DNA of 64,000 bases from Patescibacteria group bacterium (lineage in GTDB: Bacteria > Patescibacteriota > Minisyncoccia > Phycocordibacterales > UBA9973): positions 5,400-69,399 of the forward strand of contig JAZKBO010000004.1 of NCBI GenBank assembly GCA_040388575.1, in the 5' to 3' direction. Shown here one piece after another: positions 4,578-56,737 of the stretch. Both the position numbers and the translations under genes were made by a program. The notes beneath the pieces were generated by a model. The model was not told the origin of the DNA and ran no database searches. It worked only from the letters and a program-made list of their open reading frames with translations. Positions within the stretch are counted from its first letter, which is position 1. Every line of letters starts with the position of its first letter.

Positions 4578-5252
4578 CTAAAATTCACGAGGTCCTTTTA
4601 ATGCAGTTTTTTTAATTGTCTCTCTGTCTTGAGATATATCAAGCATTTTCCCATATGTGTCCCCCATTTTTCCACAATCCGATATAGCATAAGCTTGTTT
4701 GAGACGATCTCCCTCACCACTAGCAACTATCTCTTCAAAAATTTCTTTTAAAACACCCAATCTTTCTGCAAATTTTCCTGGTTCTTTCATTATTCCTAAG
4801 TTTATAGTTGAACCATTTTTTTCGTATGTATTTACAAAATCCCGGAACAAATCCGAATTTCTATTTTCAATTTCAACCTGCTGACCCGAAATTTCTTTAA
4901 CTTTTATGGCTTCATCTGCTTTTTCGATAACCTGTTTTACGATGTCATCTTCCTGAACACCCATGCCTACTATGATTTCGCCATTACTTTCAACCTTAAC
5001 CCCATCCCCCATATTTCGAAAAATAATTCTTAGTTGAGCAAATTTTTCAGCATTTATCAAACCTTTTATTTTTGCCAATGCGCCTGCACACCTATCTACT
5101 GTATATTGAGTATATGTACCCTCATTGTAAAGAGAGAACTGCGCATTTGGGAAAGCTGTCTGTATGTCTGCTAGAGTTTTAAAATTACCTGCAGCTGCAA
5201 CTTTATTTTCAGGACTAACTGGTTTACTGCCTGGGGCTTGATCAAAATTCAT
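4578..5252 (-). CDS. hypothetical protein (no recognisable motifs)
   Basis: 224-aa ORF that ends the long minus-strand gene string 10449->4578. Composition is native-like and no signal peptide is present. Confidence 0.4.
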   Translation of the reverse strand: MNFDQAPGSKPVSPENKVAAAGNFKTLADIQTAFPNAQFSLYNEGTYTQYTVDRCAGALAKIKGLINAEKFAQLRIIFRNMGDGVKVESNGEIIVGMGVQEDDIVKQVIEKADEAIKVKEISGQQVEIENRNSDLFRDFVNTYEKNGSTINLGIMKEPGKFAERLGVLKEIFEEIVASGEGDRLKQAYAISDCGKMGDTYGKMLDISQDRETIKKTALKGPREF

Positions 5253-5269
5253 ATATTTATTGTTAATAA

Positions 5270-5668
5270 TTAGTATTTCGAAGTAAAAGGATTCCTCTTT
5301 GAGAGCCCTTTCATCATTTTTTTGACACTGCGAGCGCCGCGGAGGAGTAGGGTCTGGCGGCGGCCTTTGCTTTTATTTATTTCGTTATAAAGAGTCTCTT
5401 TTATTTGGTCCACCGCGGCATACAGATCCACTTCGTCAGCACTAGCATAGAACTCTTCCCCTTTGATATTAATCAAACAGTCAGCATGAAAGATCTCCCC
5501 TGTTTTATGATGATTGGTGCTTTTAGCAACTTCGAAATTCACCATTACTTCCCCACCTCCCTCTTCAATGTTCTTTAAAAGCTTTTCTAGATTGGTAACT
5601 CTCTTTTCTACATAATCATGTATGGGAGGGGTCAACTCCATATTGGTGGCCTTTAAGTTTATTTTCAT
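5270..5668 (-). CDS. hpf: ribosome hibernation-promoting factor (RaiA/HPF family)
   Basis: MKINLKATNMELTPPIHDYVEKRV... VNFEV...HADCLINIKGEEFYA... is the HPF/YfiA fold signature. The ORF could extend to 5686. Confidence 0.75.
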   Translation of the reverse strand: MKINLKATNMELTPPIHDYVEKRVTNLEKLLKNIEEGGGEVMVNFEVAKSTNHHKTGEIFHADCLINIKGEEFYASADEVDLYAAVDQIKETLYNEINKSKGRRQTLLLRGARSVKKMMKGLSKRNPFTSKY

Positions 5669-5686
5669 ATATTTATTGTAACACAC

Positions 5687-7618
5687 CTAACGCACCCTTA
5701 TTCCATGACGTAGTGCTTGAGTAATTATGTCAATTTTCATCGTTGCCACCCCTACCACTTTATCCGCACCACCATAGTATATATAAAGCAGTTTGTCTTT
5801 TACCACCATGCCGCATGGAAAAACAACATTATTAACTACTCCTTCCTTTTCATACTTCTCTTCTGGGCTAAAAATAGGGTCGGCACTGCGGGCCAATACC
5901 AGGGCTGGGTCTTTAAGGTCAAGGAGTAATGCCCCCACTCGGTAAGTATGGTGGTTATGGGATATGCCGTGATATAAAAGTAGCCAGCCATACTTGGTTT
6001 TAATAGGCGGAGCAGTGATTCCTACCTTTTCACTGTCCCAAGTATTTATTCGCGGGCCAATAATTCGGATGCACTTTTTAACTGTTTCGTTTTTAAAGTT
6101 AAGTGTTGGTAGATAATCCCCACAAATTTCATGTCCCACGCGATGTAAAATCAAATATCCATCCGGAAACTTCTCTGGGAAAATACAAGTGTCTTTATCA
6201 TCGAAGTCCTGCGGCGTAATTAAAAATGGCTTTTCCCATTTCCACTTACGAGCGAGGAAATCTTTTTCAGTAATTGATGACACCGCTACTCTGGGTGGTC
6301 CGACACCATCAAATGCGGTATAGCAAATGTAAATATTTTTACCAATCTTAGTCAGACGTGGATCTTCACAGCCAGAGTTACCACCAGCAATTTTCTTATT
6401 TTCAAAATCTTCACGTGGTACATAGATTGGTTCTACCAGGCGCTCAGTAATATTTAGACCGTCCAGCGATAGCGCATAACCGAAGGCAGATGTATTATCG
6501 TTGGACATGGCCCGATAGACAATATGGGTTTTATCTTTGATTTGTATCGCCGCAGGGTTAAATACTGCTTGAGCTTCCCAAGCATTTTCGGGCCGTGGTA
6601 AGAGGATGGGATTGCCGGCAAAGCGTTTAAAATGGAACTCGTCTACTACATGGCCACGCATGGTGCCAACTATGTCATTAATATTTACATGCACTGCACA
6701 TACTGTAGTATCAGCCGCGCCATAATAAATAGTAAGTGTATCCTTAATAAGTACTGCGCCAGATGGAAAGACAATATTACCCACATAGCCAGTAAGTTCG
6801 TAAGCTTCCTCCGGCACAAGGATGGGGCCTTCGGTCCGGCCGATAATTTTCCTAGGGTCATTTAAGTCCAAGAGGAGGGCTTCAATTCCAAATATTCTTT
6901 TACCATTATTGGTATTAAAATAGTTTTGTATATAAGAATAAATAAGTAGCCAGCCATCCTTAGTTTTTATAGGCGTCGCTCCTACCTCCACATGGTCCGC
7001 CTCTGCCCGTTTTGGATTTATAGTATGCTCATCAATCTCATTCTGCCATTTTTGCCAAAATGAAGGTGACCACAACTCTTCCATATGGTCGACTTGCGCA
7101 ATAGCCATTTTGGTTGGCGGTGAGTCGGTGTGAGCCGAAAAAATAACAGTGATTTTACCATTTATTCTCTCTGGAAAAAGAGTCATGGCTTTGGCATTAA
7201 ATGGCGTAACGAGATGCTTCTTATCTACCTTTTTTAAATTCTTTGATATAGCCACCGCCACCTTAATGCCTGAGGCTTCATAAGGATACTTTGAAAGTGC
7301 GGTGTAAAAAGTATAATAATTGCCTTCAAAAAAAGTTATTCGTGGATCCTCGCAACCAAACTTTTCCCATTCCTCTTCGGCTATGATAAATGGCAACCTA
7401 TTATCAAAATCAATACCGTCTTTGCTCTCAACAATCCCGATTGTGGAAGTCTGTTCTGGCTTCCTCAACATATCTTTCAGGGAGATGGCTCGATAGAGCC
7501 CATAAAATTTGCCCCCCTTCTTTACCACACTCATGTTAAAAGTGGCGAAGGCTTCCCAGTAATGGTCTCTGTCTGGTACCAGTATTGGATTGTGATGTGA
7601 TCTGCGTGCAACAAACAT
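5687..7618 (-). CDS. tandem-duplicated GH130-like (Glyco_hydro_130 / beta-1,4-mannoside phosphorylase-like) beta-propeller protein
   Basis: Two GH130-like repeats of about 320 aa. Each has NPIL(V/L)P...W(E)...A(T)FN... and GCEDPR(I/L)T...Y..YTA(F) motifs. It is a paralogue of the next gene. Confidence 0.6.
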   Translation of the reverse strand: MFVARRSHHNPILVPDRDHYWEAFATFNMSVVKKGGKFYGLYRAISLKDMLRKPEQTSTIGIVESKDGIDFDNRLPFIIAEEEWEKFGCEDPRITFFEGNYYTFYTALSKYPYEASGIKVAVAISKNLKKVDKKHLVTPFNAKAMTLFPERINGKITVIFSAHTDSPPTKMAIAQVDHMEELWSPSFWQKWQNEIDEHTINPKRAEADHVEVGATPIKTKDGWLLIYSYIQNYFNTNNGKRIFGIEALLLDLNDPRKIIGRTEGPILVPEEAYELTGYVGNIVFPSGAVLIKDTLTIYYGAADTTVCAVHVNINDIVGTMRGHVVDEFHFKRFAGNPILLPRPENAWEAQAVFNPAAIQIKDKTHIVYRAMSNDNTSAFGYALSLDGLNITERLVEPIYVPREDFENKKIAGGNSGCEDPRLTKIGKNIYICYTAFDGVGPPRVAVSSITEKDFLARKWKWEKPFLITPQDFDDKDTCIFPEKFPDGYLILHRVGHEICGDYLPTLNFKNETVKKCIRIIGPRINTWDSEKVGITAPPIKTKYGWLLLYHGISHNHHTYRVGALLLDLKDPALVLARSADPIFSPEEKYEKEGVVNNVVFPCGMVVKDKLLYIYYGGADKVVGVATMKIDIITQALRHGIRVR

Positions 7619-7621
7619 AAA

Positions 7622-8824
7622 TTACAAATTTTTAATAGATTTTTTTGAAAAAACTATATTTTTCCCTGTTTTTAATTTTTTTAAAAATTCCTCCAGGTTG
7701 GTATGAGCTACCGCAATACGTTTATCACCCCCACCATAATAAATAAACAATGTACCGTCTTTCACTACTGCCCCGCTCGCATATATAATACCTGGCTTCC
7801 AATCATTTTCATACCACATGTCTGGTTCGAGTATTGGATGGTTGGCGCGATATAGAACGCGTGTCGGGTCCTTTAAATCAAGCAGAAGAGCACCGACTTT
7901 GTATCGGTTGGGGTCATCTTTATCCATGGCATGGTAAAACAACAACCACCCCTCCTTAGTTTTTATTGGTGGTGCCGCAGCACTACGAGTACGGTTATGC
8001 CAAGCAACAATATGGTCCGGGAGGGTGTGTACATCCGGAGCTTCGGCCTGGGTGGGTGTTTTATACATATTAAGATCATCTAAATACGCTATGTGGACAC
8101 GTGAAGCATCACCTAGGTCCAGATTATGGAAAAGTGCGAATTTGCCATTAATTTTCTCAGGAAAGAGGACCCAATTTTTTTGCCTATCACCAGGACGGGA
8201 TAAGTAAGTAAATTTACTCCAATTCCACTTTTTGGCTGACAAACTCTCTCCAGAGATTGAAGTAACGCCAACACGCATAGACTCCCAGCCGTTGAACATA
8301 TTAAAAGTAAGGTAAATCTGACCATCAATTTTTACTGCTCGGGGGTCCTCACAACCACCCCACCCCCCGCCAGATGCATAAAGTACTGGATCGTAAACGA
8401 GCCGAGCAGGTGAAGTATACGGGTAATGCGCCATGGCATCATTTATTTCCTCCGCAACATAAACTGGGTGAGGAAGCCTTTCATAAAAATTAATTCCATC
8501 CGAACTTGAAGCGTAACCAATTCGTGACATTCCGTCATGTCCAAGTGCGCGATAAAATAAATGGATGCGTCCATCATGCACTACTGCTGCTGGGTTAAAG
8601 ACTGCTTCCGACTCCCAAGGTGAATGAGGGGATGGTTCCATTATTGGATTACCGATAAATTTCTTAATAAGAACTGGGTGTGTTTTCTTTACTATCTTCT
8701 TTACTATTTTCTTTGTTGTTTTTTTGGCTGTAACCTTTACCCGGCTCTTTTTAGGAGTAACTTTTTTGACTGTAACTTTCTTTGTCTTTTTTGCTATTAC
8801 TTTTTTCTTTTTAAGCTCGGCCAT
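7622..8824 (-). CDS. GH130-like glycoside phosphorylase with lysine-rich N-terminal tail
   Basis: NPIMEP...WESEAVFNPAAV...YRALG... and GGCEDPRAVKIDGQIYLTFN motifs. The N-terminal tail is KKKKVIAKKTKKVTVKKVTPKK... The start is assigned to the Met at 8824, whose ATG overlaps the upstream cupin stop as ATGGCCGAGCTTAA. The ORF is open to 8881. Confidence 0.6.
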   Translation of the reverse strand: MAELKKKKVIAKKTKKVTVKKVTPKKSRVKVTAKKTTKKIVKKIVKKTHPVLIKKFIGNPIMEPSPHSPWESEAVFNPAAVVHDGRIHLFYRALGHDGMSRIGYASSSDGINFYERLPHPVYVAEEINDAMAHYPYTSPARLVYDPVLYASGGGWGGCEDPRAVKIDGQIYLTFNMFNGWESMRVGVTSISGESLSAKKWNWSKFTYLSRPGDRQKNWVLFPEKINGKFALFHNLDLGDASRVHIAYLDDLNMYKTPTQAEAPDVHTLPDHIVAWHNRTRSAAAPPIKTKEGWLLFYHAMDKDDPNRYKVGALLLDLKDPTRVLYRANHPILEPDMWYENDWKPGIIYASGAVVKDGTLFIYYGGGDKRIAVAHTNLEEFLKKLKTGKNIVFSKKSIKNL

Positions 8825-9161
8825 ATTTGTCCTCATAGCGAGTAATGTCTTCTTCGTCGAACTCGCCAGTAGCGACTTCAACTAATAACATTCCGGATGG
8901 CCCTGCTATCCAGCGATGCTTGGCACCGACCGGTGCCGTGTATTCAGCGCCAGGTGAAATTTTAAATATTTTGTCATCAATATGAACTTCACCATCGCCC
9001 TCGATAAAATACCAAAATTCAGAACGTTTGGTGTGGCTCTGCCAGCTTGTCTCTTCATTAGGTTTAACTTTATGAACTTTAACGGTTGATGGGCTATTTA
9101 AAGTAAGCTGGCGAAAAGATCCCCAAGGACGCTCTATAGTAAAAGGTGTGAAATCTGACAT
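8811..9161 (-). CDS. mannose-6-phosphate isomerase, type II cupin domain
   Basis: ERPWGSF..L.....KVHKVKPNEETSWQSH.KRSEFWYFIEGDGEV...H.WIAGPSGMLLVEVATGEFDEEDITRYEDKYGR matches the C-terminal PMI cupin of ManC-type enzymes almost position by position. Confidence 0.75.
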   Translation of the reverse strand: MSDFTPFTIERPWGSFRQLTLNSPSTVKVHKVKPNEETSWQSHTKRSEFWYFIEGDGEVHIDDKIFKISPGAEYTAPVGAKHRWIAGPSGMLLVEVATGEFDEEDITRYEDKYGRA

Positions 9162-9188
9162 CTTTTAATTATATAACTTATCGTTCTT

Positions 9189-9956
9189 TTAGCCAATCCA
9201 GCCTTGTATAAATTTAGCTGTTTCTTCGGGGCCCTTCACAGCTATGGTCTCGAACCCTGCCTCCTTAACAGAGTAGTCATTTCCTCCTGGAAAAAGGCCA
9301 TCCCCTACAAAGACCATATCGGATTTTTGAAATCCGAGCTTATTCAACAATTTCGTGAGCCCAACACCTTTGTTATAACCCTTCGGAACAATATCAATGC
9401 TAGAGTATGCGTTAATTAAAAAGCTAACCTCTGGCAACAGCGGTTCTAGTATTGAAACTATTTTTTGTCTTTTTCGTTTGTCTGGATCCCAGGCCCTCTT
9501 TGCTTCAATATTCGCAAGTTGTCCACAGCCAGAAAAAGTTATTTGCGTGTCTCTATCTTCTACAATTTCGCCAGCTGGATTAGGTGGTATTTCATATAAA
9601 CCGGAATCGATTATTTCTTTTAGGAATTTTTTAATCTTAGTTTTTATATTTTCATCTAAAAGTTCCTTATCTGTGATTTGCCAATCTTTTTTTACTTTAT
9701 CGTATTCATACTGTTGGGTTGCGCTAGTCGGTAATAAAATTAAATTATGAATATAAGGGAGAAAAGAATTGTCATTTAAAAATGGCGGTAAAAATTGTGT
9801 TTGAAATTGCTTAAGACTTCCACCACTAGTAACAACTACAATAATTTTTTTTATTAATTGCTTTACTAATTCTCCCATTTCTGGGGTAATTGGAGACTTG
9901 CTGACAGCGAGCGTGCCGTCAAGATCAAAAGAAATAACCTTTTTGTTTGGCAACAT
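9189..9956 (-). CDS. eukaryotic-type phosphomannomutase (HAD-IIB family)
   Basis: ISFDLDGTLAVSKSPITPEM (DxDGTLT motif I), KIIVVVTSGGSLKQ, and VFVGDGLFPGGNDYSV (the PMM FFGDKTMPGGNDHEIF box). Confidence 0.7.
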   Translation of the reverse strand: MLPNKKVISFDLDGTLAVSKSPITPEMGELVKQLIKKIIVVVTSGGSLKQFQTQFLPPFLNDNSFLPYIHNLILLPTSATQQYEYDKVKKDWQITDKELLDENIKTKIKKFLKEIIDSGLYEIPPNPAGEIVEDRDTQITFSGCGQLANIEAKRAWDPDKRKRQKIVSILEPLLPEVSFLINAYSSIDIVPKGYNKGVGLTKLLNKLGFQKSDMVFVGDGLFPGGNDYSVKEAGFETIAVKGPEETAKFIQGWIG

Positions 9957-9957
9957 T

Positions 9958-10425
9958 TTATTTTTTAATTGCTAGTTTAGCTTTTTCCACTAATTCTGAC
10001 GAGCTGCGCACTTTGCCGCCCTCACCGATGTTAAAAACCATTTCTATGCCTAAACGCTTGCAAAGTTTATACTCTGGTATATTGTCATGCTTTCTATCTC
10101 CACCGTTAGCAAAAATATCCGGCATAACAATTTCAAGCTCTCGGCAAATTGATATATCCTTGGTGTTTATCTCATGGGTTGTAATTAAAACTTCATCTAC
10201 TGATTCGAAGGATTCGATAATTTCCTTGCGGTCGCCCTCCGGCATAAAGGCAAAGCCTTTCTTGAAGCGTAGCCAATGGTCATTATTTAGAATTACCACC
10301 AGCCTATCCCCTAATCTTTTAGCCTCTTTAAACATCCTCACATGGCCTATGTGCACTGGATCAAAGCCACCGCTCACAGCAACTGTTTTATGTGCCTTTG
10401 TTTTTTGTTTATTTTTTGCCGTCAT
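9958..10425 (-). CDS. cytidylyltransferase-fold nucleotidyltransferase (HldE domain II / RfaE2-like sugar-1-phosphate nucleotidyltransferase)
   Basis: VAVSGGFDPVHIGHVRMFKEAKRLGDRLVVILNNDHWL carries the (H/T)xGH motif and the GDRLIV box of RfaE-II/TagD-like enzymes. The ORF is open to 10449. Confidence 0.6.
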   Translation of the reverse strand: MTAKNKQKTKAHKTVAVSGGFDPVHIGHVRMFKEAKRLGDRLVVILNNDHWLRFKKGFAFMPEGDRKEIIESFESVDEVLITTHEINTKDISICRELEIVMPDIFANGGDRKHDNIPEYKLCKRLGIEMVFNIGEGGKVRSSSELVEKAKLAIKK

Positions 10426-10468
10426 GTAATCTTGCCTTAAGTATATCAATTTGTGCTAAAATTGTCAT

Positions 10469-11146
10469 ATGTCAAAAAAGCTAATTTACTTTGTCCGCCA
10501 TGGTGAAACCGAGCTTAATGCTAAGGGTATTAAGCAGGGTGTAGAGGGTGCCTTAAGCGCTAGGGGCAGGGCTCAGGCAGCAGATACGGCCCAAAAGTTT
10601 CCCCGGCATCAAGGTAGCCCACAAATAATAATTTCGAGCCCTTATCCGAGGACCAGAGAAACATCTGAAATAATCGCAAATCAACTGAAGCTCAATATTG
10701 AGTACACTGATCTTTTAGCAGAAAGAAGAAATCCTTCAGAGGTAATTGGCCGCTCTACTAAAGACAGAGAGGTAGAGGCCATTGTAGACCGGATTGAAAA
10801 AAGCTTTCATGATGACAACTTTCGATATTCAGATGAGGAGAATTTCGTAGATTTAAGAGATAGAGCAAAAAAATTACTGCAGCTCATTAAATCAAGACCA
10901 GAGAGTAGGATAATTATGGTTACTCATCGAGCATTCTTGAAAATGATCCTGGCATACATGTTCCTAGACGAAACTCTTGATGCTAAAATTTTTAATAAAG
11001 TAAGTTATTTTAACCCCATAGATAATGCCGGGCTGACAATAGTGCAATACACTCCGCATTGGTTTAAAAAAGACGAATGGAAGCTAATTGCTCAAAATAG
11101 CAACCTTATCGAGGAGCCACCAAAAACTCAATTTATTTTAGAGTAA
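10469..11146 (+). CDS. histidine phosphatase superfamily protein (phosphoglycerate mutase-like)
   Basis: LIYFVRHGETELNAKG (RHG motif) and VTHRAFLKMI (the second His). Confidence 0.7.
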   Translation: MSKKLIYFVRHGETELNAKGIKQGVEGALSARGRAQAADTAQKFPRHQGSPQIIISSPYPRTRETSEIIANQLKLNIEYTDLLAERRNPSEVIGRSTKDREVEAIVDRIEKSFHDDNFRYSDEENFVDLRDRAKKLLQLIKSRPESRIIMVTHRAFLKMILAYMFLDETLDAKIFNKVSYFNPIDNAGLTIVQYTPHWFKKDEWKLIAQNSNLIEEPPKTQFILE

Positions 11147-12345: not shown

Positions 12346-13500
12346 TTAAAAATTACGATAATATGCATTTGCCGTATCGGTGCAAATACGCTCTCCCTCT
12401 CCGGTAAGGACGCTACAGAATTCTAGAGCTTGTTTGTCGGAATGATAGTAGGAAATTATTTCCTTCACCGCACCGATAACGCAATTATTGAAATCGTTCG
12501 GGTCTTTAGCAATAGAACATAATTCCTTCGTGCGCATTTTTTCATGCATGGCTTGATTGGCCACATCGCGCCCCATGCTTTGGTTACATATATCGCGATA
12601 CGGCGCTTCCACTGTAGTGCATAAAGCAAAAACTTTTTTATAATCATAGCCTGTCACTTGCAATGCATAGGATGTCTGGCCCAGGTAACATTGGCCTTTA
12701 TATTTGGTGTCCACCGCAGTACAAGGGTAAAGGGGTTCCTTTGGTTTTAAATCTTTCACTATATTATCCGTATCGGCCACATTGGTGCTATCAATAATAT
12801 TTTGCATAAATACTCCACCGTAACAGGACTCCTCTTCCCAATTGCCAGACAGGTTGTCACACATTTTTAATGAATCGAAAACATCATCCTCTAGGAGCGC
12901 CATTACTCCGTGGCCAAGCCCGTGCACGCAATTAAAATAATCGAAGGTGTAATTGGCTTTACCTGGAATGTCCGCGCAGATGTTATTTAACTCTTTGGGT
13001 AAATTCGATAGGCCAATTTTTGCTACCATACCCTCCATCACGCCGTGGAAGTAGCCGCTCCAGCAATATGAGTCCCCATTCGCAAAAGCCTCCGAGATGG
13101 TTTTATAATTCCCCACCGCTGCGCGGCCTATCACATGCATAAGCGGATGGCATTGCGACAGAACGCTGGGGTTTTCAGCAGCACGCTTCTTCATGTCCGC
13201 AGTAGCTAAAGTAACTCCAGAAGTTTTTACTAAATTTTTATAATACTCAGAAAAGCAGTTATAGGTAAATGGTGCACCAGCGCAAACTTTGGAATCATAA
13301 TTCGATAAATCAATGTTCTTATCTGCTACCACGCCTTCTGGGTTGACTGCACTATTTAATACTTGGCTATCAGGCTGGAAAACTATTCGGTCGGAATTTC
13401 CACTCTTTCCGGAAGTTTTATAGTATCTAAAAAAACCAAAACTGGCCCCCGCAACCAGGAGTACAATAATTCCCATTTTAAGACCGGGGCTAAATTTCAT
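12346..13500 (-). CDS. secreted/membrane-anchored cysteine-rich hypothetical protein
   Basis: N-terminal TM/signal segment, more than 20 Cys, and His-containing motifs HPLMHVIGRAA and HGLGHGVM. Confidence 0.45.
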   Translation of the reverse strand: MKFSPGLKMGIIVLLVAGASFGFFRYYKTSGKSGNSDRIVFQPDSQVLNSAVNPEGVVADKNIDLSNYDSKVCAGAPFTYNCFSEYYKNLVKTSGVTLATADMKKRAAENPSVLSQCHPLMHVIGRAAVGNYKTISEAFANGDSYCWSGYFHGVMEGMVAKIGLSNLPKELNNICADIPGKANYTFDYFNCVHGLGHGVMALLEDDVFDSLKMCDNLSGNWEEESCYGGVFMQNIIDSTNVADTDNIVKDLKPKEPLYPCTAVDTKYKGQCYLGQTSYALQVTGYDYKKVFALCTTVEAPYRDICNQSMGRDVANQAMHEKMRTKELCSIAKDPNDFNNCVIGAVKEIISYYHSDKQALEFCSVLTGEGERICTDTANAYYRNF

Positions 13501-13514
13501 AAATTAAGTATACA

Positions 13515-14201
13515 TTACGTAGAGCTTTTTTCAATTATATCTTCCAGCTCGGCTGCAGCCTTTTTAATATATTTTTCTTGTAACTGATTTATTTTTTCTT
13601 TCATGAGTTCAAATTTTTCTGGATCCTGATCTTTCAAATTATTTATATCTTTATAAATCAAGTCGTGTTCAATCTCCGCCCAAGCATGATGGAGTATTGA
13701 AGTAAGTTGAATTTCACTTTTTAATCCACGTAGATGCTTGTACTCGCTTAATTTGAGGCGCTTAGGTCCGAAAGACATCACTATGTGAGTGGCACGGTAA
13801 CCATTTTGCTTATTCCTCTCCTCTACTTTCATAAACCCACCAATTTCATTTTTGATTCTTTTAGTAAATCTATCTTTATCTCTTTCCGTGTAGAAAATTA
13901 TTCTTATACCAACCAGGTCCTCAACTTCCTCGACAGAGTGATACAAAATACCCTCCCTTTTTTTACGTAGGAGCTTCTCCTCCAGCCTCTCTGGGGTTTT
14001 GGTCCTCGAAACAATTTGGTACTTGTAGCCCTCTTCTTCTAGCAACGCCTCCAGGGCTTTATGTGCAGCTACCCTGAAATCTTCATAATTTGGGCGCTTG
14101 TTTTTGTATTCCGTTAATATGTCGCCAATATAACTCTGCTCACCTTTATGCCTTTTAGGATTCAAAAAAGCTATGATTTTATCCATCAACTGCGCATTCA
14201 T
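13515..14201 (-). CDS. RelA/SpoT-domain small alarmone synthetase ((p)ppGpp/(p)ppApp synthetase-like)
   Basis: DLVGIRIIFY, GYRATHIVM and EIQLTSILHHAWAEIEHD are the synthetase-domain motifs of RelA/SpoT nucleotidyltransferases. The protein is single-domain with no hydrolase or TGS domain. Confidence 0.7.
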   Translation of the reverse strand: MNAQLMDKIIAFLNPKRHKGEQSYIGDILTEYKNKRPNYEDFRVAAHKALEALLEEEGYKYQIVSRTKTPERLEEKLLRKKREGILYHSVEEVEDLVGIRIIFYTERDKDRFTKRIKNEIGGFMKVEERNKQNGYRATHIVMSFGPKRLKLSEYKHLRGLKSEIQLTSILHHAWAEIEHDLIYKDINNLKDQDPEKFELMKEKINQLQEKYIKKAAAELEDIIEKSST

Positions 14202-34451: not shown

Positions 34452-35654
34452 TTAATCGAAGTAGTTTTTCAAACGTGAGATTTTGTCATGGCTGCGGAGC
34501 TTGTCATGCACTTTAGCTTCAATTTGGCGGATACGCTCACGAGTAACACCGAACTCTTCACCTACCCGCTCTAGGGTGTGCTGGATGCCATCGAGTAAGC
34601 CATAACGCATTTCTAGAATTTTGCGTTCCTTAGGATTAAGCTCGTCTAATACTTCCCGAATTTGATCCGAGAGTATGCGGCGGGAAGATTCTTGATCCGG
34701 GCGCAGAATTTTATCATCCGGAATAAAGTTCTCAAGTGTTGATTTATCATCATCATCCCCTACTGGCTGCTCGAGTGACACTGTCTCTTGGGAAATATTT
34801 TCGATAGTATGAATTTTCTCTACTGGTATACCCATCTCGGTGGCAATTTCTTCTGCCAATGGCTCACGGCCTAAATCCTGTGAGAGCTTGCGGTGAGTCT
34901 GCTTATACTTGGAAATTGTCTCTACCATGTGCACCGGTATGCGGATGGTGCGGCTCTGGTCCGCCAAGGCACGAGTTATGGACTGCCTAATCCACCAAGT
35001 AGCATAGGTTGAGAATTTAAAACCCTTATTCCAGTCGAACTTTTCCACTGCTTTGAACAAGCCTAAGTTACCTTCCTGAATTAGGTCTAGCAGGGTCAGG
35101 TTAGCGCTACGGCCCACATATTTCTTAGCAATGGACACCACAAGGCGCAGGTTCGCCCTGGCTAGGAGGTTTTTAGCCTCAAGGTCGCCCTTCTCGATAC
35201 GCTTAGCAAGGTCCTTCTCTTCTGAGGCATGGATCAAGGGGTATTGGCCTATCTCTTTGAGGTACATTTGAATGGAGTCATACATTCCGGACTTGTTCAG
35301 GTCCTTGTCCGCGGAGTCTACATCAAGGTCAAGTAGGTTGCCGCCTTCAAGTACATCAATGCCCGCGACTGCTAATTTTTCATAAAGCTCATCTAAGAAT
35401 AGGACGTTGTTTTCAACATTTGGAAAAGTTTTTAAAATTTCATCGTAGGTTATGAACCTGCGCTTGCGGCCCTTCTCGATCAGGATTTGGGCAAGCTTAT
35501 CGAAGCTCTCGCGCTTAGAGTCTTTCTTAGCATCTTTCTTGGCGCTCTTTTTCTTAAGCTTTAAGGATTTTTTTAGAGCACTTTTTATTCGCGCCTTTCT
35601 TTGAGCTTTGTGTTTATTATTTAATTTTTTTGCTTTTTTTAATTTTTTTGTCAT
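34452..35654 (-). CDS. rpoD: RNA polymerase sigma-70 factor RpoD with lysine-rich N-terminal tail
   Basis: Region 2 [39 protein letters not shown]. Region 4 at the C-terminus. N-terminal tail [22 protein letters not shown]... Confidence 0.85.
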
Positions 35655-47249: not shown

Positions 47250-49220
47250 GTGTTATATTTAAAGGTAATGTCGCAATCGAAGAAAAAAGGGGGCACAAAC
47301 CGCCTGGAAGGCACTATCTCCATCTCTGCCAAAGGCATAGGCTATGTGGCTGTAGGGGAAACTAAAAATAAAGGCCAGGATCCGGAAATAGATTCTAAGC
47401 ATTTAAACACTGCCCTTCATGGCGACAGGGTGGAGATTGTACTCCATCCTAAGAGCAAGAATCGCCAGACTGCGGAAGTTACCCGCGTAATAACCCGAGC
47501 CAAAACTGGCTTCATGGGCGTCATAGAGGAACAGAATGGCTTATTTTTTTTAAAGCCAGATGATCCTAAAATGTATACGGATATCATCGTTCCTCAAAGT
47601 ATGTTAAATGGCGCTAAGGCTGGGGAGAAAGTTTTCGTCAAAATCGTTTCTTGGAATGACCCTCGTAAAGAACCAGAAGGTAAAGTAGAAAAGGTCTTAG
47701 GTAAGCCAGGTGATAATAATGTCGAGATGGAGGCCATCGCGATGGAAAAAGGCTTCGCTGCAAGTTTACCTACAGATGTTGAAGCCGAAGCGGAAAGGAT
47801 AAAGCACGCGGGCATAAAAGAATCTGATTATCAAGATCGTCGGGATTTCCGCAACACTCTCACCTTCACTATCGACCCGGACACTGCTAAGGACTTCGAT
47901 GATGCAATATCATTCAAAGAAATAGATAAAGATAAATACGAGGTGGGTATTCATATAGCTGATGTATCACATTATGTGCAAATCGGCAGCGCAATAGATA
48001 AGGAGGCCAGGGAGCGCGGCACATCGGTATACCTCGTGGACCGTACCATCCCGATGTTGCCAGAAGTACTTTCTAATGACTTGTGCTCCTTGGTGCCGAA
48101 TCAAGATCGCCTGACCATGAGTGCTGTTTTTGTTATAGATAAAAATGCCAAGGTTGCTGGTGAATGGTTCGGCCGCACAGTTATCCATTCCCAAAGGCGC
48201 TTCACTTATGAAGAGGCCGAGGAATCGATAAAGAAATCCTCTGCACCACTACATAAGGAGCTTGCAATATTGAATGGTTTAGCAAAAAAGTTAACCAAGG
48301 AGAGGTTCAGTAAGGGCGCAATATCACTCGATCAAGAGGAAGTTAAGTTTGTCCTAGATGATAAAGGTGTGCCGATCAAAGTAATTAAAAAGGAGCGCGG
48401 CGACTCTAATAGATTGATCGAGGAATTTATGCTCTTGGCAAATAAAAAAGTTGCCCAAATTATTTCCTCATCTAATTCTAAGACCAAGGGTCAAAAAGAC
48501 CACAGTATTTCCATTTACCGCGTGCATGACCTGCCGAGTAAGGAAAAGATGGCAGATCTCGCTTTCTTCCTGCGCAGCCTCGGGCACAAAATAACATTAC
48601 GTGACGGGCTGATACCAACTTTTGAAATTAATAAGTTACTGGAGAGCTTGAAAGGTAAAAGTGAGGCCGACACCGTGCATCGCGCTGTCATCCGCTCCAT
48701 GGCCAAGGCAATTTACTCTACCAAAAATATCGGCCACTATGGCCTTGCATTTGAATACTATACTCACTTCACCTCCCCGATCCGCCGCTACCCAGACATC
48801 ATTGTGCATCGCCTACTTGAGGACCACCTAGAAGGTATTAAAATAAATCCCGATAAGCTCCATGTATTTGAAGACATGTCGAGGATTGCTTCCGAGCAAG
48901 AAAAGAGAGCCTCGGATGCGGAACGAGCATCGATTAAGTACAAACAAGTGGAGTACATGTCACTCCGGATCGGCAAAGCTTTCGATGGCGTCATCAGCGG
49001 CATAACCGAGTGGGGTATGTATGTGGAAGAGCTTGAAACAAAGTGTGAGGGTTTGGTGCGCGTGCGTGACATGGCGGATGATTACTATATATACAATGAA
49101 AAAAAGTTGGAATTAGTCGGCCAGAAGAAGAAAAAGCGCTACCGCCTCGGGGATCGTGTTAAAATAAAAGTTAAAGCGGTTGATTTGGAGCGCAAAACAA
49201 TTGATTATATTCTAGTATGA
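47250..49220 (+). CDS. rnr: ribonuclease R (RNB family 3'-5' exoribonuclease)
   Basis: Cold-shock/OB N-terminus. RNB catalytic DFDDAISF...HIADVSHYV. C-terminal S1 domain (GVISGITEWGMYVEL). Confidence 0.8.
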   Translation: MLYLKVMSQSKKKGGTNRLEGTISISAKGIGYVAVGETKNKGQDPEIDSKHLNTALHGDRVEIVLHPKSKNRQTAEVTRVITRAKTGFMGVIEEQNGLFFLKPDDPKMYTDIIVPQSMLNGAKAGEKVFVKIVSWNDPRKEPEGKVEKVLGKPGDNNVEMEAIAMEKGFAASLPTDVEAEAERIKHAGIKESDYQDRRDFRNTLTFTIDPDTAKDFDDAISFKEIDKDKYEVGIHIADVSHYVQIGSAIDKEARERGTSVYLVDRTIPMLPEVLSNDLCSLVPNQDRLTMSAVFVIDKNAKVAGEWFGRTVIHSQRRFTYEEAEESIKKSSAPLHKELAILNGLAKKLTKERFSKGAISLDQEEVKFVLDDKGVPIKVIKKERGDSNRLIEEFMLLANKKVAQIISSSNSKTKGQKDHSISIYRVHDLPSKEKMADLAFFLRSLGHKITLRDGLIPTFEINKLLESLKGKSEADTVHRAVIRSMAKAIYSTKNIGHYGLAFEYYTHFTSPIRRYPDIIVHRLLEDHLEGIKINPDKLHVFEDMSRIASEQEKRASDAERASIKYKQVEYMSLRIGKAFDGVISGITEWGMYVEELETKCEGLVRVRDMADDYYIYNEKKLELVGQKKKKRYRLGDRVKIKVKAVDLERKTIDYILV

Positions 49221-51118
49221 ATACGAAACAGGGAAAAATAAGATGGTTATTGCTTTTAACCCTGGCAATGGTGGCCTTTTTGGGCACGACTTCATATTAT
49301 TTAAAGAATCTTATATATAAAGAAGCGAACCAATTAGCGGATGTTTCCGCCGCCCCGGTTCTAGCCAGTACTGACACGGGGCCTAAATATTTCTATTTCA
49401 ATAAAGAAGCGGCACTACTCCCGAAGGTTTCTGCCACTGCATTCCTGGTGGGTGACCTTGATACGGGTGAAGTAATTATGGAGAAAAATCAAGACACCCA
49501 GCTTCCTATTGCTTCAGTCTCAAAATTGATGACGGCGTTAGTGGCCAATGAGCTGGGAGGAGAAAAAAATGAAGAGGGAGAGGCCCAAGTCAGTAAAAAA
49601 GCCTTGGCTACCTACGGTGGCAACGGTGCCTTCCACTTGGGAGAGAAAATTAAAGTCAACGAGCTTTTCTATCCGCTCCTCTTAGAATCCAGTAACGACG
49701 CCGCCGAGATCCTGGCGGAATATTTCGGACGCGATACTTTCCTTTCTAAAATGAATCAGGAAGCGCAAATCCTGCAGATGTCCTCCACCACCTATGATGA
49801 CCCGAGCGGCCTCTCCCCTAATAACAAGTCTACCGTATCGGACCTTTTTAAACTCGCAGGATTTTTAAGTAAACAAAAGCAAAACATATTGGACATCACT
49901 ACGAAACGTAGCTACACCAATGACAAACATAACTGGTCCAGCAACAACCAATTCCTGCGCGAGGCTGGTTATGAAGGTGGCAAAAGTGGCTTCACTGACC
50001 CTGCCAAACAAACTGTTATTTCGATCTTCTCTGTACCGCTGCCGCCAGGCGGTGAACGTAATATTGCCATCACCCTACTAGGAAGCAATGATAGACATAA
50101 GGATGTAGATAATATTGTCAGCTATCTAAAGAAAAATATATATTATGGTGGTGAAGCGGATGCTAACATCGCTTGGGTCAAACAAAAAGACGGCATCCCA
50201 GAAATTAAGGATCCGGACTTTGTTACCCTCTCCTTCGTCGGTGATATTATGGTGGACCGCGGGGTAAAAAATTCCGTGATGAATAACTTCGGCGGCGACT
50301 ACTCCGCATTATTTGATAAAATGGGAACCTTGAAAGATTCAGATGTGGTCTTTGCAAATTTGGAAGGCACCGCATCGGACAAGGGGGAAGATCAAGGAAA
50401 TTTGTATTCCTTCCAAATGGACCCGACGATTATACCAGCACTACGTGGTGCGGGAGTAAGCATCCTCTCTGTGGCTAACAATCACGTTGGCGACTTTGGA
50501 CGGGAGTCATACATTGATACACTTTCGCGCTTGCGGGAAAATGAAATTACTTATACTGGTGGCGGTATGAATAGTGAGGAAGCCGAGCAGCCAGCGGTAA
50601 TGGAAAAATATGGCATCAAGTTAGGATTTCTTGGCTTCTCGGACGTTGGCCCAGACTGGATGAATGCGAAGGAGGACACTGCTGGATTATTACTAGCTAG
50701 TAACCCACGCTTTGATCAAATAATTAAAAATGCTGCCAGCCAGGTGGATGACCTTATCGTCTCCTTCCACTGGGGTGTTGAATATCAAACGCAGCATAAT
50801 GCTAGGCAGGAAGAATTAGCGCACAAAGCCATAGATGATGGCGCAAAAATAATTATCGGCACCCACCCACATGTGATGGAAGATACTGAAACTTATAAGA
50901 ATGGTTACATCGCTTATTCACTTGGAAACTTTATATTTGACCAGATATTTAGTGCAGAAACTATGAAAGGCATGCTGCTTAACATTAAGCTCGGCCACGA
51001 TGGCAGCCTAGCAGTGACAAAAAATACTGTCAGGTTAAACGACGCCTTCCAGCCGGACACTGTAGTGGCTGGAAAGGAAGAAAAGATTAAGTTTGATAGT
51101 GTATTGATTCCAAATTAA
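49217..51118 (+). CDS. fusion protein: D-alanyl-D-alanine carboxypeptidase (S11, penicillin-binding) + CapA/PGA_cap metallophosphatase-fold domain
   Basis: N-terminal half has SxxK (ASVSKLM), SxN (SSNDAA) and KSG (KSGFTD). C-terminal half has LSFVGDIMVDRGV, ANNHVGDFG, FHWGVEY and GTHPHV, as in the CapA poly-gamma-glutamate family. Confidence 0.6.
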   Translation: MNTKQGKIRWLLLLTLAMVAFLGTTSYYLKNLIYKEANQLADVSAAPVLASTDTGPKYFYFNKEAALLPKVSATAFLVGDLDTGEVIMEKNQDTQLPIASVSKLMTALVANELGGEKNEEGEAQVSKKALATYGGNGAFHLGEKIKVNELFYPLLLESSNDAAEILAEYFGRDTFLSKMNQEAQILQMSSTTYDDPSGLSPNNKSTVSDLFKLAGFLSKQKQNILDITTKRSYTNDKHNWSSNNQFLREAGYEGGKSGFTDPAKQTVISIFSVPLPPGGERNIAITLLGSNDRHKDVDNIVSYLKKNIYYGGEADANIAWVKQKDGIPEIKDPDFVTLSFVGDIMVDRGVKNSVMNNFGGDYSALFDKMGTLKDSDVVFANLEGTASDKGEDQGNLYSFQMDPTIIPALRGAGVSILSVANNHVGDFGRESYIDTLSRLRENEITYTGGGMNSEEAEQPAVMEKYGIKLGFLGFSDVGPDWMNAKEDTAGLLLASNPRFDQIIKNAASQVDDLIVSFHWGVEYQTQHNARQEELAHKAIDDGAKIIIGTHPHVMEDTETYKNGYIAYSLGNFIFDQIFSAETMKGMLLNIKLGHDGSLAVTKNTVRLNDAFQPDTVVAGKEEKIKFDSVLIPN

Positions 51119-54947: not shown

Positions 54948-55811
54948 TTATCTAATACCTGTATCAATATTAAAATTCAACGTGGTTGTTTGACCACTTT
55001 TTACAGTTACTGTGCCCTTATTTTCACTGAGTTCATCAACCATCATTCCGCTTGCTTTTATCGTATACGTGCCTGGGGCCAATGTAAATTGATAATTGCC
55101 ATTGGCATCTAAGTGCTGGCTGGAAACCAAAACTCCGGATTGTGTAAACACTCCAACTTGACGTGCCATATTTGTCTCTGGTGATGGAGTGCACGGGTGT
55201 CCAATTTGCTCCACCGGACAGACGGGCCCAATATCCACATGGCCTTTGAGGGTGCCAGTGGAAGCTTGGACCGTATTCGTAAATTTAAAAGTGGAAAGAA
55301 TTTGTTGTTCTTGATTTAAGTCACCCCAACAATTTAAAGGATCTCGATAGGAAATCGCTATTGTGTCCTTTCCGTCTTTTGTTGAAGTTTGGAAATTTGA
55401 TGTAGCACACTTAGGTGTGCCGTCTTCTGGATCATAAAATCCATACCAAGTTACGCCTGCAATATTATTCGAAGTCGGAGTAATAGATTTATCATAAGGA
55501 TTGGGATCAATGTTTGTCTTGGTCCAACCTTTCATAATCGTAATTATTGGACCTTCCCCGATTGTCAGCTGAACAGTCGGGTATTTCGTCCCATTGTACA
55601 AAAATGAACCCGTATCTTTAGGGGTTAGTGTGGTTAACTGGTACGGAGTTTTTATCTCAAATCCATACTGATCATTGGTATATGTTTTCCAATTTGCAGT
55701 TGATTCTTGTTTTGCGGGAGCTTGAACTGAATTTTTGTTTTTTTGCAAAAGAAAAATACCACCAAAAAGTACTCCGACCACAACTATACTAATAATTATT
55801 TGCTTAATCAT
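54948..55811 (-). CDS. secreted hypothetical protein with C-terminal Ig-like/carboxypeptidase-regulatory-like beta-sandwich
   Basis: N-terminal TM/signal segment. C-terminal GTLKGHV...APGTYTIKASG...VKSGQTTTLNFNI pattern. Confidence 0.4.
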   Translation of the reverse strand: MIKQIIISIVVVGVLFGGIFLLQKNKNSVQAPAKQESTANWKTYTNDQYGFEIKTPYQLTTLTPKDTGSFLYNGTKYPTVQLTIGEGPIITIMKGWTKTNIDPNPYDKSITPTSNNIAGVTWYGFYDPEDGTPKCATSNFQTSTKDGKDTIAISYRDPLNCWGDLNQEQQILSTFKFTNTVQASTGTLKGHVDIGPVCPVEQIGHPCTPSPETNMARQVGVFTQSGVLVSSQHLDANGNYQFTLAPGTYTIKASGMMVDELSENKGTVTVKSGQTTTLNFNIDTGIR

Positions 55812-56737
55812 TTCTTTGTAATTATTTCTATAGCCTTAGTAATCAGCGGAATTATGTCGTTGTAAATATGGAGGTCGGGAATTTCTTTCAATTTAAACCA
55901 ACGCGCTTCGTCTAGGCCCCCTGTAACTTCAAGGGTCAAGGGTTCATATTTGGATTCGGCTAAAAAGTAGATAACTTTCTTTAAAATTTTACCCTTCTCT
56001 GGGTGCGAGGCTACATACTCATTCTCCCCCAATTTTTCAGTAATATTCACATCTATACCTATCTCCTCCTTGATCTTTTTAGCAGTAGCTTCCTTTTCAT
56101 CCCCTGCGCTTTCAATGCCGCCCTTGGTGAGTGTCCAGTAGCCGAAAACGTCGTGCACCATGGCAAAGTAAATATCTTTGCCTTCCTTGGCATACACCAC
56201 AGCCCCACCCTTGCGCTCCACGGGTAATTTGCTCCTGTCTATTGGGGTGTCGTTTTTATGAATTTCCTTTTTCTTTTTACTGACTTCATCCTTACCTGGC
56301 TCGCCTATTTCCTTATACACCGCCCCGAGCACACCGTTGACGAATTTACCGGAATTTTCACCGCCGAAAGTCTTCGCGAGTTCTATTGCTTCATTGATGG
56401 CCACCTTCGGTGGCACTTGACCACGATCGCCAAAGAGGAGCTCGGTGAGCCCAATGCGTAAAATATTTCTATCAATGATGGAAATCTTATCTATCGGCCA
56501 GTCAGGCGCAGCTTTTTCGATGATCTCATCGATCACCGTTTGTTTTACAATTATTTGGTCGGTAAGCATGAAGACGAAGTTGTCCTCCTCCATGCCGGGA
56601 GCGAATTCCTTGAGGTTGCGATCTAAAATTTCTTTTACTTTCTCGGGAGTGTGGTCGGCAGGTTTTGATTGAGACAAGAAGTCCCACTCAAAAAGGGTCT
56701 GAAGTACTATTGATCTGGAAAGATGCCTATTTGCCAT
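55808..56737 (-). CDS. nusB: NusB antitermination factor fused to a C-terminal NUDIX hydrolase domain
   Basis: NusB N-terminus: MANRHLSRSIVLQTLFEWDF... and KFVNGVLGAV. The C-terminus carries a Nudix box: TKGGIESAGDEKEATAKKIKEEIGID. Confidence 0.65.
   Translation of the reverse strand: MANRHLSRSIVLQTLFEWDFLSQSKPADHTPEKVKEILDRNLKEFAPGMEEDNFVFMLTDQIIVKQTVIDEIIEKAAPDWPIDKISIIDRNILRIGLTELLFGDRGQVPPKVAINEAIELAKTFGGENSGKFVNGVLGAVYKEIGEPGKDEVSKKKKEIHKNDTPIDRSKLPVERKGGAVVYAKEGKDIYFAMVHDVFGYWTLTKGGIESAGDEKEATAKKIKEEIGIDVNITEKLGENEYVASHPEKGKILKKVIYFLAESKYEPLTLEVTGGLDEARWFKLKEIPDLHIYNDIIPLITKAIEIITKK

Follow-up and report, generated by a model that had tools for sequence, protein, structure and literature searches.

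The stretch of DNA considered here, 64,000 nucleotides from a member of the Patescibacteria and referred to throughout as the window, carries on its minus strand a run of seven consecutive co-directional open reading frames (ORFs) reading from 10449 to 4578, five of which fall within the span 5687-10449 and make up the gene cluster that is the subject of this work. In the order in which they are read, these five encode a small nucleotidyltransferase (NT) of 155 amino acids with the cytidylyltransferase (HxGH) fold (9958-10425, the ORF extending to a TTG at 10449); a HAD-IIB hexose-phosphate mutase of 255 amino acids, from the family of the eukaryotic phosphomannomutases (PMMs) and the Lactococcus alpha-phosphoglucomutase (alpha-PGM) (9189-9956); a stand-alone cupin of 116 amino acids from the type-II phosphomannose isomerase (PMI) family (8811-9161); a protein with a single, GH130_6-like PF04041 module and a lysine-rich tail, here called GH130K (7622-8824, ORF to 8881); and a tandem GH130 protein of 643 amino acids with two PF04041 stretches (5687-7618). 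The start of the NT is most likely the ATG at 10425 rather than the TTG at 10449, and the resulting product matches the 155-residue protein P0121 at 100% identity. The original prediction for this DNA had described seven almost gapless genes on one strand, and the ORF list and the reading of each junction bear this out, the largest gap being 27 nt; the motifs that it quoted (GGFDPVHIGH, DLDGTL and FVGDGLFPGGNDY) are all found in the ORF translations, and its five family calls all lie above the Pfam gathering scores in profile searches. Of the overlaps that it claimed, the one between the cupin and GH130K genes is real (ATGGCCGAGCTTAA, an overlap of 14 nt, which grows to 26 nt should GH130K begin at the ATG at 8836), but read base by base the NT and HAD genes are separated by 1 nt (TAA-A-ATG) and the GH130K and tandem GH130 genes by 3 nt (TAA-TTT-ATG). 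The spacer between HAD and cupin is the 27-nt gap. This tight packing is operon-like.

The profile searches place both propeller ORFs in GH130. Against PF04041 (cut-off 26 bits) the tandem protein scores 320 bits in its two stretches and GH130K scores 132.8 bits, and the best NCBIfam model for every module is NF052550, beta-1,2-mannobiose phosphorylase, although its equivalog cut-off of 450 bits is not reached by the tandem protein (434 bits with the two modules summed) or by the modules one at a time (198, 241 for the C-terminal module of the tandem protein, and 207 bits). The closest solved structures for all three modules are Teth514_1788 (9FJ8) and Teth514_1789 (7FIP), which in Thermoanaerobacter sp. 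X-514 are, respectively, a 1,2-beta-oligomannan phosphorylase and a beta-1,2-mannobiose phosphorylase of subfamily GH130_6 (PMC4264767). GH130K matches 9FJ8 with 168 bits as a single sequence and 240 bits as a profile, and the C-terminal module of the tandem protein is 44% identical to Teth514_1788; the modules are 36-44% identical to that protein and 32-39% identical among themselves, and they are old paralogues. An AlphaFold2 model of the tandem protein (pLDDT 92.3, pTM 0.90) agrees with the five-bladed beta-propeller fold, and the pTM indicates a fixed arrangement of the two predicted propellers; with this model as query, Foldseek returns 9FJ8 first, at a TM score of 0.89-0.90 normalised to target length, an rmsd of 2.1 A and 39% identity. 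A placement in GH43, GH32 or a non-catalytic propeller family, which would have undone the earlier family call, is rejected on the PF04041, PDB and Foldseek matches. Membership of GT108 is likewise rejected: the match is one of fold only (14% identity, Foldseek rank 36-39), and no chain of the GT108 proteins of Leishmania (MTPs) appeared in the single-sequence searches of the PDB or, up to E = 1, in the profile search with GH130K.

The active-site residues were compared in an alignment of Teth514_1788 with orthologues of each module (24 N-terminal, 24 C-terminal and 23 GH130K), the columns being tied to published positions by HMMER alignments to Uhgb_MS, of which E136, D137, K184, R202, R242 and H261 correspond to E92, D93, K143, R161, R195 and H214 of the Teth514_1788 chain. 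The catalytic and -1 subsite residues of Teth514_1788 are given as Asn28, Asp92 and Asp281 (PMC4264767), and specificity for beta-1,2 linkages is attributed to a Glu beside the catalytic Asp and to a Lys (BT3780 Lys199, PMC4599007; Uhgb_MS K184, PMC12814180). In chain numbering, N29, E92, D93, K143 and D282 are essentially invariant in all three modules across the 23-24 orthologues of each, the D282 position being Glu in one of the 23 GH130K orthologues. The indicated specificity of the modules is therefore beta-1,2, as in Teth514_1788/1789, and the generic beta-mannoside substrate of the original prediction is narrowed accordingly by the conserved E92 and K143.

The residues that bind phosphate tell the three modules apart. 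GH130 phosphorylases use 'three basic residues' for phosphate (Cuskin et al.; PMC4599007); R202 and R242 of Uhgb_MS are named as phosphate-stabilising (PMC12814180), and H261 is counted as phosphate-binding on the alignment made here. Of the three modules, the C-terminal one of the tandem protein (5687-6643) alone has this basic set in full: all 24 orthologues share H160, R161, H214 and, in place of R195, a Lys. In the N-terminal module (6653-7618) the R202 position is Ser or Thr, the R242 position is a gap or a His followed by an invariant Glu, and the H261 position is Ser. In GH130K the R202 position is Asn, Ser or Gly (Asn in the window protein) and the R242 position is variable, with an invariant Arg one residue later, while the His of H261 is kept. 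Only the C-terminal module, a candidate for a canonical beta-1,2-mannoside phosphorylase, thus still looks like a working phosphorylase. The earlier claim of three GH130 domains that phosphorolyse mannosides stands as to family and as to the catalytic Asp, which all three keep, including both domains of the tandem protein, but not as to the phosphate-binding residues. The loss in the N-terminal module does not mark decay: mean identity among close orthologues is 68% for this module and 72% for the C-terminal one, and a module as conserved as its phosphorylase-like partner is evidently functional.

The beta-1,2-mannosidases BT3780 and BACOVA_03624 (GH130_3; PMC4599007) have likewise lost the basic phosphate residues while keeping the catalytic Asp, its neighbouring Glu and the Lys for beta-1,2 linkages. 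Those enzymes, however, are secreted hydrolases with the pair Glu227/Glu268 in place of the two Arg, whereas the two modules without the Arg (Arg-less modules) have no Glu pair at the corresponding positions, mapped by residue spacing, and no signal peptide; in the window N-terminal module one invariant Glu lies two residues further on. The window GH130 modules score 95-121 bits on a BT3780 model, below their scores on the phosphorylase model, and the reading of the Arg-less modules as canonical GH130_3 hydrolases is rejected, as Glu pair and signal peptide are both missing. Comparison with Uhgb_MS, one of the GH130 enzymes that act both as phosphorylase and as transferase (GH130_4; PMC12814180), identifies the same E136/K184 determinants, and its K184/R202/R242 pocket maps onto the C-terminal module. 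The window modules differ in being GH130_6-like and without the GH130_4 lid loop, and in being joined by fusion rather than as a homodimer; the dimer interface of Uhgb_MS is proposed to hold the nucleotide (PMC12814180), and in the model of the tandem protein the two propellers form a rigid unit.

GH130K carries in addition the lysine-rich tail that the original prediction had remarked on, which lies at the N-terminus (8660-8824), is of low complexity and about 55 residues long, and has 20 Lys and Arg in its densest 40 residues. Its composition, not its sequence, is kept in 17 of 22 GH130K orthologues, where it spans about 25-100 residues with up to 51 Lys and Arg, and the long-tailed orthologues are those of Nomurabacteria-type loci. 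That the tail binds a polyanion is a reasonable guess. Among the window ORFs of at least 100 residues only one other such tail is found, on the primary sigma-70 factor (regions 1.1 to 4; 34452-35654, minus strand), whose N-terminal lysine-rich tail closely resembles that of GH130K. In four distant Paceibacterota (L024:1591-3498, L026:6071-7990, L028:6021-7994 and L030:5086-6990) the long lysine tail is replaced by an extra N-terminal domain of about 300 amino acids that is missed by Pfam; the L024 domain, the one that was compared, aligns by hhalign to GH130 blades with a probability of 91%, and this putative degenerate GH130-like propeller would give those genomes two tandem proteins and four GH130-derived modules.

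The two genes between the NT and GH130K encode the HAD protein and the cupin. The HAD protein scores 39.6 bits on PF03332 (cut-off 22.4) over profile positions 3-215 of 221 and 73.4 bits on TIGR01484 (cut-off 41.8), its DxDxT and GD-x4-GGND motifs vary little or not at all among 14 orthologues, and its 17 best PDB matches are all from the PMM family, Cof-type proteins appearing only at E ~1e-4. The boxes of eukaryotic PMM that had been recognised in it are thereby upheld, and its assignment as a Cof-type phosphatase is rejected, the PMM-family PDB matches being far ahead. Its best match is 4BND, the L. lactis alpha-PGM (PgmH), at 133 bits and 36% identity over 243 columns, compared with at most 53 bits for the PMMs. 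As its closest characterised relative is an alpha-phosphoglucomutase, 'PMM' is for this protein a label of family and not of sugar preference. L. lactis PgmH was reportedly found to be glucose-specific by Neves et al. in 2006. With PgmH and with PMM1/PMM2 the window protein shares the HAD-IIB fold and both motifs, and with PgmH nearly the full length, but its gene context points to mannose. The cupin scores 60.8 bits on PF01050 (cut-off 23.6) and matches only the C-terminal positions 359-467 of TIGR01479 GMP_PMI (60 bits against a cut-off of 373), as expected of the stand-alone type-II PMI cupin that had been proposed; its 116 residues contain no ManC-type guanylyltransferase domain. Q41, H43, E48 and H82, which by analogy with PMI zinc sites are presumably the metal ligands, are invariant in 30 orthologues, and the nearest structures in the PDB, 7ZVY and 7ZVM, are likewise stand-alone cupins, of which one carries the deposited name 'mannose-6-phosphate isomerase'.

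The NT has the RfaE-II/TagD-like cytidylyltransferase fold that had been assigned to it, not the ManC fold: it scores 47.5 bits on PF01467 (cut-off 21), H-x-G-H is invariant in 27 sequences, and further invariant motifs read VSGGFDPxHxGH, FANGGDR and GGK-x-x-SSS. It aligns over its full length with TIGR02199 (rfaE_dom_II) at 76.5 bits, below the cut-off of 181.5. The best PDB match by profile is 3GLV from the archaeon Thermoplasma volcanium (70.9 bits), and 3GLV itself scores 81 bits on TIGR02199, which makes the match of the NT to RfaE-II unspecific. The heptose nucleotidyltransferase motif (F/L)xxGxSTT is not present, the region reading GGK(V/I)(R/Q)SSS in the clade and GGKVRSSS in the window protein. 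An assignment as heptose-1-phosphate adenylyltransferase from the TIGR02199 match is rejected on both grounds. With HldE domain II/HldC, TagD and 3GLV/RibL the NT has in common HxGH, a KKG region, GGD-x-K, a Ser/Thr-rich C-terminal motif, a length of about 150 amino acids and the stand-alone state; it differs in lying below every curated cut-off and in having no heptose motif. It belongs to a Patescibacteria clade of its own, about 70% conserved and with thousands of members.

The neighbours of this clade bear on its function. All four contexts chosen from NT homologues on long contigs show the order NT-HAD-cupin-GH130K-tandem GH130 with differing outer flanks; in four further loci (L009, L014, L015 and L016) the NT gene abuts GH130K with neither cupin nor HAD between them, and in L046 and L063 the gene order is permuted with the NT-GH130 adjacency kept. 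In a metagenome sample anchored on the NT, GH130 genes are present in about 8 of the 24 loci with enough flank. Among the other 16 loci, ten have NAD-dependent epimerase/dehydratases, GT2 or GT4 glycosyltransferases, UDPG/GDP-Man dehydrogenase, NeuB or Wzy within about 4 kb, and one more has a PMM-type HAD as its neighbour on its own. The idea that the NT is always linked to GH130 genes is rejected, since most copies lie elsewhere, in glycan-biosynthesis clusters. The recurrence of glycosyltransferase, NDP-sugar (nucleoside diphosphate sugar) and GH130 neighbours, more telling here than sequence, nevertheless suggests that the NT is probably a Patescibacteria-specific sugar-phosphate nucleotidyltransferase.

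The cluster recurs widely among relatives of the window genome. Homologues that carry a name come from Candidatus Nomurabacteria, Paceibacterota or a 'Patescibacteria group', and the remainder of the 64-kb window holds housekeeping genes typical of Nomurabacteria/Paceibacterota-type genomes of the Candidate Phyla Radiation (CPR). A database search with the tandem protein gives 6514 matches at E <=1e-20, and the best 120 cluster representatives are full-length and 68-78% identical. In 30 related loci, GH130K lies directly upstream of the tandem gene in all 23 that reach that far, while the cupin is adjacent in 15, the NT in 14 and a HAD of the window type present in 7. Across Nomurabacteria-type loci, identity to the window protein is 66-78% for the tandem protein, 63-73% for peptide deformylase and 77-88% for histidyl-tRNA synthetase, so that the tandem protein is conserved at a level comparable with the housekeeping deformylase and approaching that of the synthetase. 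The genes are seen in contigs from many different metagenomes, and a gene set that recurs in dozens of independent contigs is more than a chance assembly. Its least conserved and most dispensable member is the HAD, with 768 homologues at E <=1e-10 against at least thousands for the NT and tandem GH130, a rough comparison. The slot between NT and cupin is empty in some loci and in others holds a Cof-type HAD-IIB gene. The latter, which scores 56 bits on TIGR00099, is highly conserved in the closest relatives (L005:5796-6545) and found also at L034:6422-7180 and, by blast, in L039, L040, L046, L088 and L096; it has no PF03332 match and is a non-orthologous replacement of the PMM-type HAD. In L034 an extra ORF of 337 amino acids without a Pfam match (8681-9694) is inserted between GH130K and the tandem GH130 gene, and a DedA/VTT-domain membrane protein follows the cluster.

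Given these findings, it is tentatively suggested that the five genes form one operon and constitute a cytoplasmic hub around mannose 1-phosphate (Man-1-P), at which a buffer of beta-1,2-mannosides is both made and remobilised; this is the favoured interpretation, held at somewhat less than even confidence. To judge from families and catalytic motifs, the cupin would convert fructose 6-phosphate (Fru-6-P) to mannose 6-phosphate (Man-6-P), the HAD mutase would convert Man-6-P to alpha-Man-1-P, and the NT would turn a sugar 1-phosphate into an NDP-sugar, so that cupin, HAD and NT would be non-canonical stand-ins for ManA, ManB and ManC and the three small genes, taken as a set, look like a full pathway from Fru-6-P to NDP-hexose. 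The C-terminal module of the tandem protein would, on its sequence and structure model, interconvert beta-1,2-mannosides plus phosphate and alpha-Man-1-P. The N-terminal module and GH130K would make no use of phosphate and may instead use the NDP-sugar that the neighbouring NT makes to lengthen beta-1,2-mannosides, which is the least secure step of the scheme. The net effect would be a cytoplasmic pool of beta-1,2-mannosides that is built and then remobilised without ATP cost. Both Arg-less modules keep the mannose-binding, acid-catalyst and beta-1,2 residues, and with one module of three phosphorylase-like, the cell would probably make and break mannosides and not just eat them. All tested beta-1,2 GH130 phosphorylases have weak glycosyltransferase (GT) activity with GDP-mannose (PMC12814180). 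In Leishmania, the GT108 paralogues MTP1-7 (PMC10913872; PDB 6Q4X, 6Q50) are likewise paralogous five-bladed propellers, linked there to a cytosolic beta-1,2-mannan; they differ at the same Arg, which is present in the phosphorylases and replaced by His in the transferases, and the mannogen synthases use GDP-mannose exclusively in a make-and-break reserve cycle (PMC10913872). These precedents, and the fact that the Arg-less modules are the sole candidates within the cluster for use of an NDP-sugar, favour the buffer. The likeness has limits: the MTPs belong to another CAZy family and are eukaryotic, while the window Arg-less modules have Ser/Thr or Asn/Ser/Gly and not His at the position of the Arg. 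No signal-peptide-like N-terminus was seen by eye in the five cluster proteins, and no gene for a transporter or a secreted glycanase was found in the cluster or next to it in the related loci examined.

Several observations weigh against a make-and-break buffer. The GT activity of GH130 enzymes is about 1000-fold below their reverse phosphorolysis, and in GT108 (PMC10913872) the Arg alone is not diagnostic of transferase versus phosphorylase. Other roles can be envisaged for the Arg-less modules: they may be lectin-like partners or a new type of hydrolase, and GH130K may be a phosphorylase that uses its shifted invariant Arg. The nearest characterised relative of the HAD is a glucose-phosphate mutase, and its gene is absent or replaced by the Cof type in many loci. 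Sixteen of the approximately 24 sampled NT orthologues with enough flank are not beside GH130 genes, no beta-1,2-mannan from CPR bacteria is reported in the literature searched, and the closest characterised cluster, that of Thermoanaerobacter, has been interpreted as a system for the salvage of external oligomannan (PMC4264767).

This last precedent underlies the main rival reading, held at only slightly lower confidence than the buffer, in which the window cluster serves the salvage of external mannosides: beta-1,2-mannooligosaccharides imported from a host or the environment would be cut to alpha-Man-1-P by modules that differ in chain-length preference, and the Man-1-P would enter glycolysis through the HAD and the cupin or be converted by the NT to NDP-mannose for glycosyltransferases encoded elsewhere. 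In Thermoanaerobacter the adjacent GH130_6 paralogues, to which the window modules are related by 36-44% identity, a TM score of 0.9 and shared residues (the catalytic Asp, the Glu beside it and the Lys), are also cytoplasmic and also lie beside a nucleotidyltransferase, which is proposed to activate Man-1-P, and phosphorolysis spares ATP in fermentative cells (PMC4264767). CPR bacteria are generally taken to depend on host-derived compounds; the NT orthologues that lie elsewhere are in GT clusters that would consume an NDP-sugar, and salvage explains the NT as well as a make-and-break buffer does. Several points count against salvage. First, no transporter, solute-binding protein or secreted endo-glycanase is encoded in or beside the cluster in any locus examined, whereas the Thermoanaerobacter cluster has an ABC transporter and a GH5 enzyme (PMC4264767). 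Second, few sources of beta-1,2-mannan are known (PMC4264767), yet the genes show housekeeping-level conservation across many metagenomes. Third, two of the three modules are without the phosphate-binding Arg. Nor is the resemblance of the two clusters complete. The Patescibacteria cluster numbers three modules, and in some relatives four; two are fused, two lack the phosphate Arg, and one protein bears a polycationic tail. Its NT has the cytidylyltransferase fold in place of the ManC one, its additional members are a PMI-type cupin and a mutase of the PMM family, and it has no ABC transporter, GH5 or GT4 gene. The compact route that was originally proposed, from beta-mannoside through Man-1-P and Man-6-P to Fru-6-P or NDP-mannose, accordingly survives in that members of all the families it needs are present, but not as purely catabolic scavenging, to which the linked anabolic NT, the lack of transporter and glycanase, the housekeeping-level conservation and the apparently complete set from Fru-6-P to NDP-hexose are ill suited.

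It is improbable, though less so than the two readings of the NT that follow, that the small genes are not mannose-specific at all, the HAD being an alpha-PGM, the NT making NDP-glucose, CDP-glycerol or a similar envelope precursor, and their adjacency to the GH130 genes reflecting shared regulation. The 133-bit match of the HAD at 36% identity to L. lactis alpha-PGM, with PMMs at 53 bits or less, would fit this, as would the sub-threshold scores of the NT on the RfaE-II and, lower, the TagD models and the position of most sampled NT orthologues in GT/epimerase clusters without GH130. On the other hand, the cupin falls in the PMI family with all four predicted metal ligands invariant, the NT-GH130 adjacency outlasts both the loss of cupin and HAD and the permutation of gene order, and the GH130 enzymes tested accept only alpha-Man-1-P as donor (PMC4264767).

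A reading of the NT as an archaeal-type, RibL-like flavin adenine dinucleotide (FAD) synthetase or other cofactor adenylyltransferase that merely travels with the cluster is very improbable. Its best solved match, 3GLV, is a small, uncharacterised archaeal protein with the same C-terminal SSS motif, RibL is described in the literature as having the same fold, and the NT gives weak matches to models of FAD synthetase and of phosphopantetheine adenylyltransferase (PPAT). However, the score on the bacterial FAD synthetase model PF06574 is 20.8 bits against a cut-off of 27, the models of nicotinamide mononucleotide adenylyltransferase (NMNAT) give at most 21 bits against cut-offs above 110, and the NMNAT and PPAT models score below those of sugar- and polyol-phosphate transferases. 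Thus, of the cofactor enzymes that had been named as possible alternatives for this protein, the bacterial types are disfavoured by the models themselves, while the archaeal RibL type is argued against by context only: no flavin genes were seen among the NT neighbours, the recurrent ones being sugar-nucleotide, GT, PMM-type HAD or GH130 genes. Finally, a heptose variant, with the cupin acting on sedoheptulose 7-phosphate, the mutase giving heptose 1-phosphate and the NT an NDP-manno-heptose, is scarcely credible, because although RfaE domain II is the best NCBIfam model for the NT over its full length, stand-alone heptose nucleotidyltransferases are described as widespread and the chemistry would be analogous to that of PMI and PMM, the score and the STT motif fall short as described above, no GmhA, kinase or GmhB genes are present, and the GH130 -1 subsite residues for mannose are invariant.

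If the make-and-break buffer is retained, it may be taken further, to a cytoplasmic beta-1,2-mannan reserve in Paceibacteria-type CPR bacteria that would be the counterpart of Leishmania mannogen. Here a wholly non-canonical NDP-mannose pathway starting from Fru-6-P (cupin PMI, HAD PMM and cytidylyltransferase-fold NT) would feed GH130 modules that have lost the phosphate site and act as NDP-sugar-dependent synthases, a single phosphorylase would remobilise the polymer, and the polycationic tail would anchor the synthase on some polyanion of the cell. In this complete form the proposal is unlikely. What is new in the cluster is the fusion of two modules in tandem, a conserved loss of the phosphate site from two modules out of three with no hydrolase signatures in its place, the polycationic tail, the presence of a cytidylyltransferase-fold NT and the housekeeping-level conservation in a lineage of reduced genomes. 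No discussion of such a cluster in Parcubacteria/Paceibacteria was found in the full-text literature searched, the sole related mention being of two GH130 genes in a Microgenomates genome. CPR bacteria are viewed as metabolically minimal and host-dependent, and to our knowledge storage or buffering carbohydrates are essentially unknown there. Were the hub confirmed, this conserved gene set would tie glycolysis to an activated sugar and to beta-1,2-mannosides, and the CPR carbon economy would have at its centre a component that has so far escaped discussion; the GH130 modules that are under strong selection without a phosphate site would be material for testing a switch to a true nucleotide-sugar transferase, and the NT clade would be a new group of small nucleotidyltransferases. 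Among the best 120 matches per protein, source-named entries read 'hypothetical protein', 'HAD-IIB family hydrolase' or 'adenylyltransferase/cytidyltransferase family protein', and proteins that are now labelled in such generic terms could receive testable names.

The run of co-directional genes continues beyond the tandem GH130 gene, after a spacer of 18 nt, with a gene for the ribosome hibernation factor HPF/YfiA (5270-5668, ORF to 5686, minus strand; PF02482, TIGR00741) and ends with a 224-residue protein without a Pfam or NCBIfam match (4578-5252, minus strand). HPF lies downstream of the tandem GH130 gene in most related loci and is counted here as a conserved neighbour of the cluster. 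Genes associated with stress or dormancy stand on both sides, HPF directly downstream and, 3 kb upstream, a small RelA/SpoT-type alarmone synthetase (13515-14201, minus strand). Divergent from the NT is the gene of a histidine-phosphatase superfamily protein (10469-11146, plus strand; PF00300, 106.8 bits), found at the same position in the closest relatives only (L005/L006/L007, L017 and L069). This superfamily includes sugar-phosphate and glycosyl-phosphoglycerate phosphatases. The short spacer between the two divergent genes holds the top-scoring promoter-like site of the region, ATGACA-17-TATACT with a TG element (10440-10468, minus strand), just upstream of the NT start; the total of sites in the promoter and terminator scan of the region is at chance level, so that the scan cannot define the transcription unit and the site at 10440-10468 is a weak one.

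Three further ORFs of the window are recorded here. A cysteine-rich protein of 384 amino acids with an N-terminal hydrophobic segment and no Pfam or NCBIfam match is encoded at 12346-13500 (minus strand). At 49217-51118 (plus strand) a fusion of 633 amino acids joins a D-Ala-D-Ala carboxypeptidase (Peptidase_S11) to a PGA_cap (CapA-like) domain, and at 55808-56737 (minus strand) an ORF of 309 amino acids joins a NusB domain to a NUDIX hydrolase domain.

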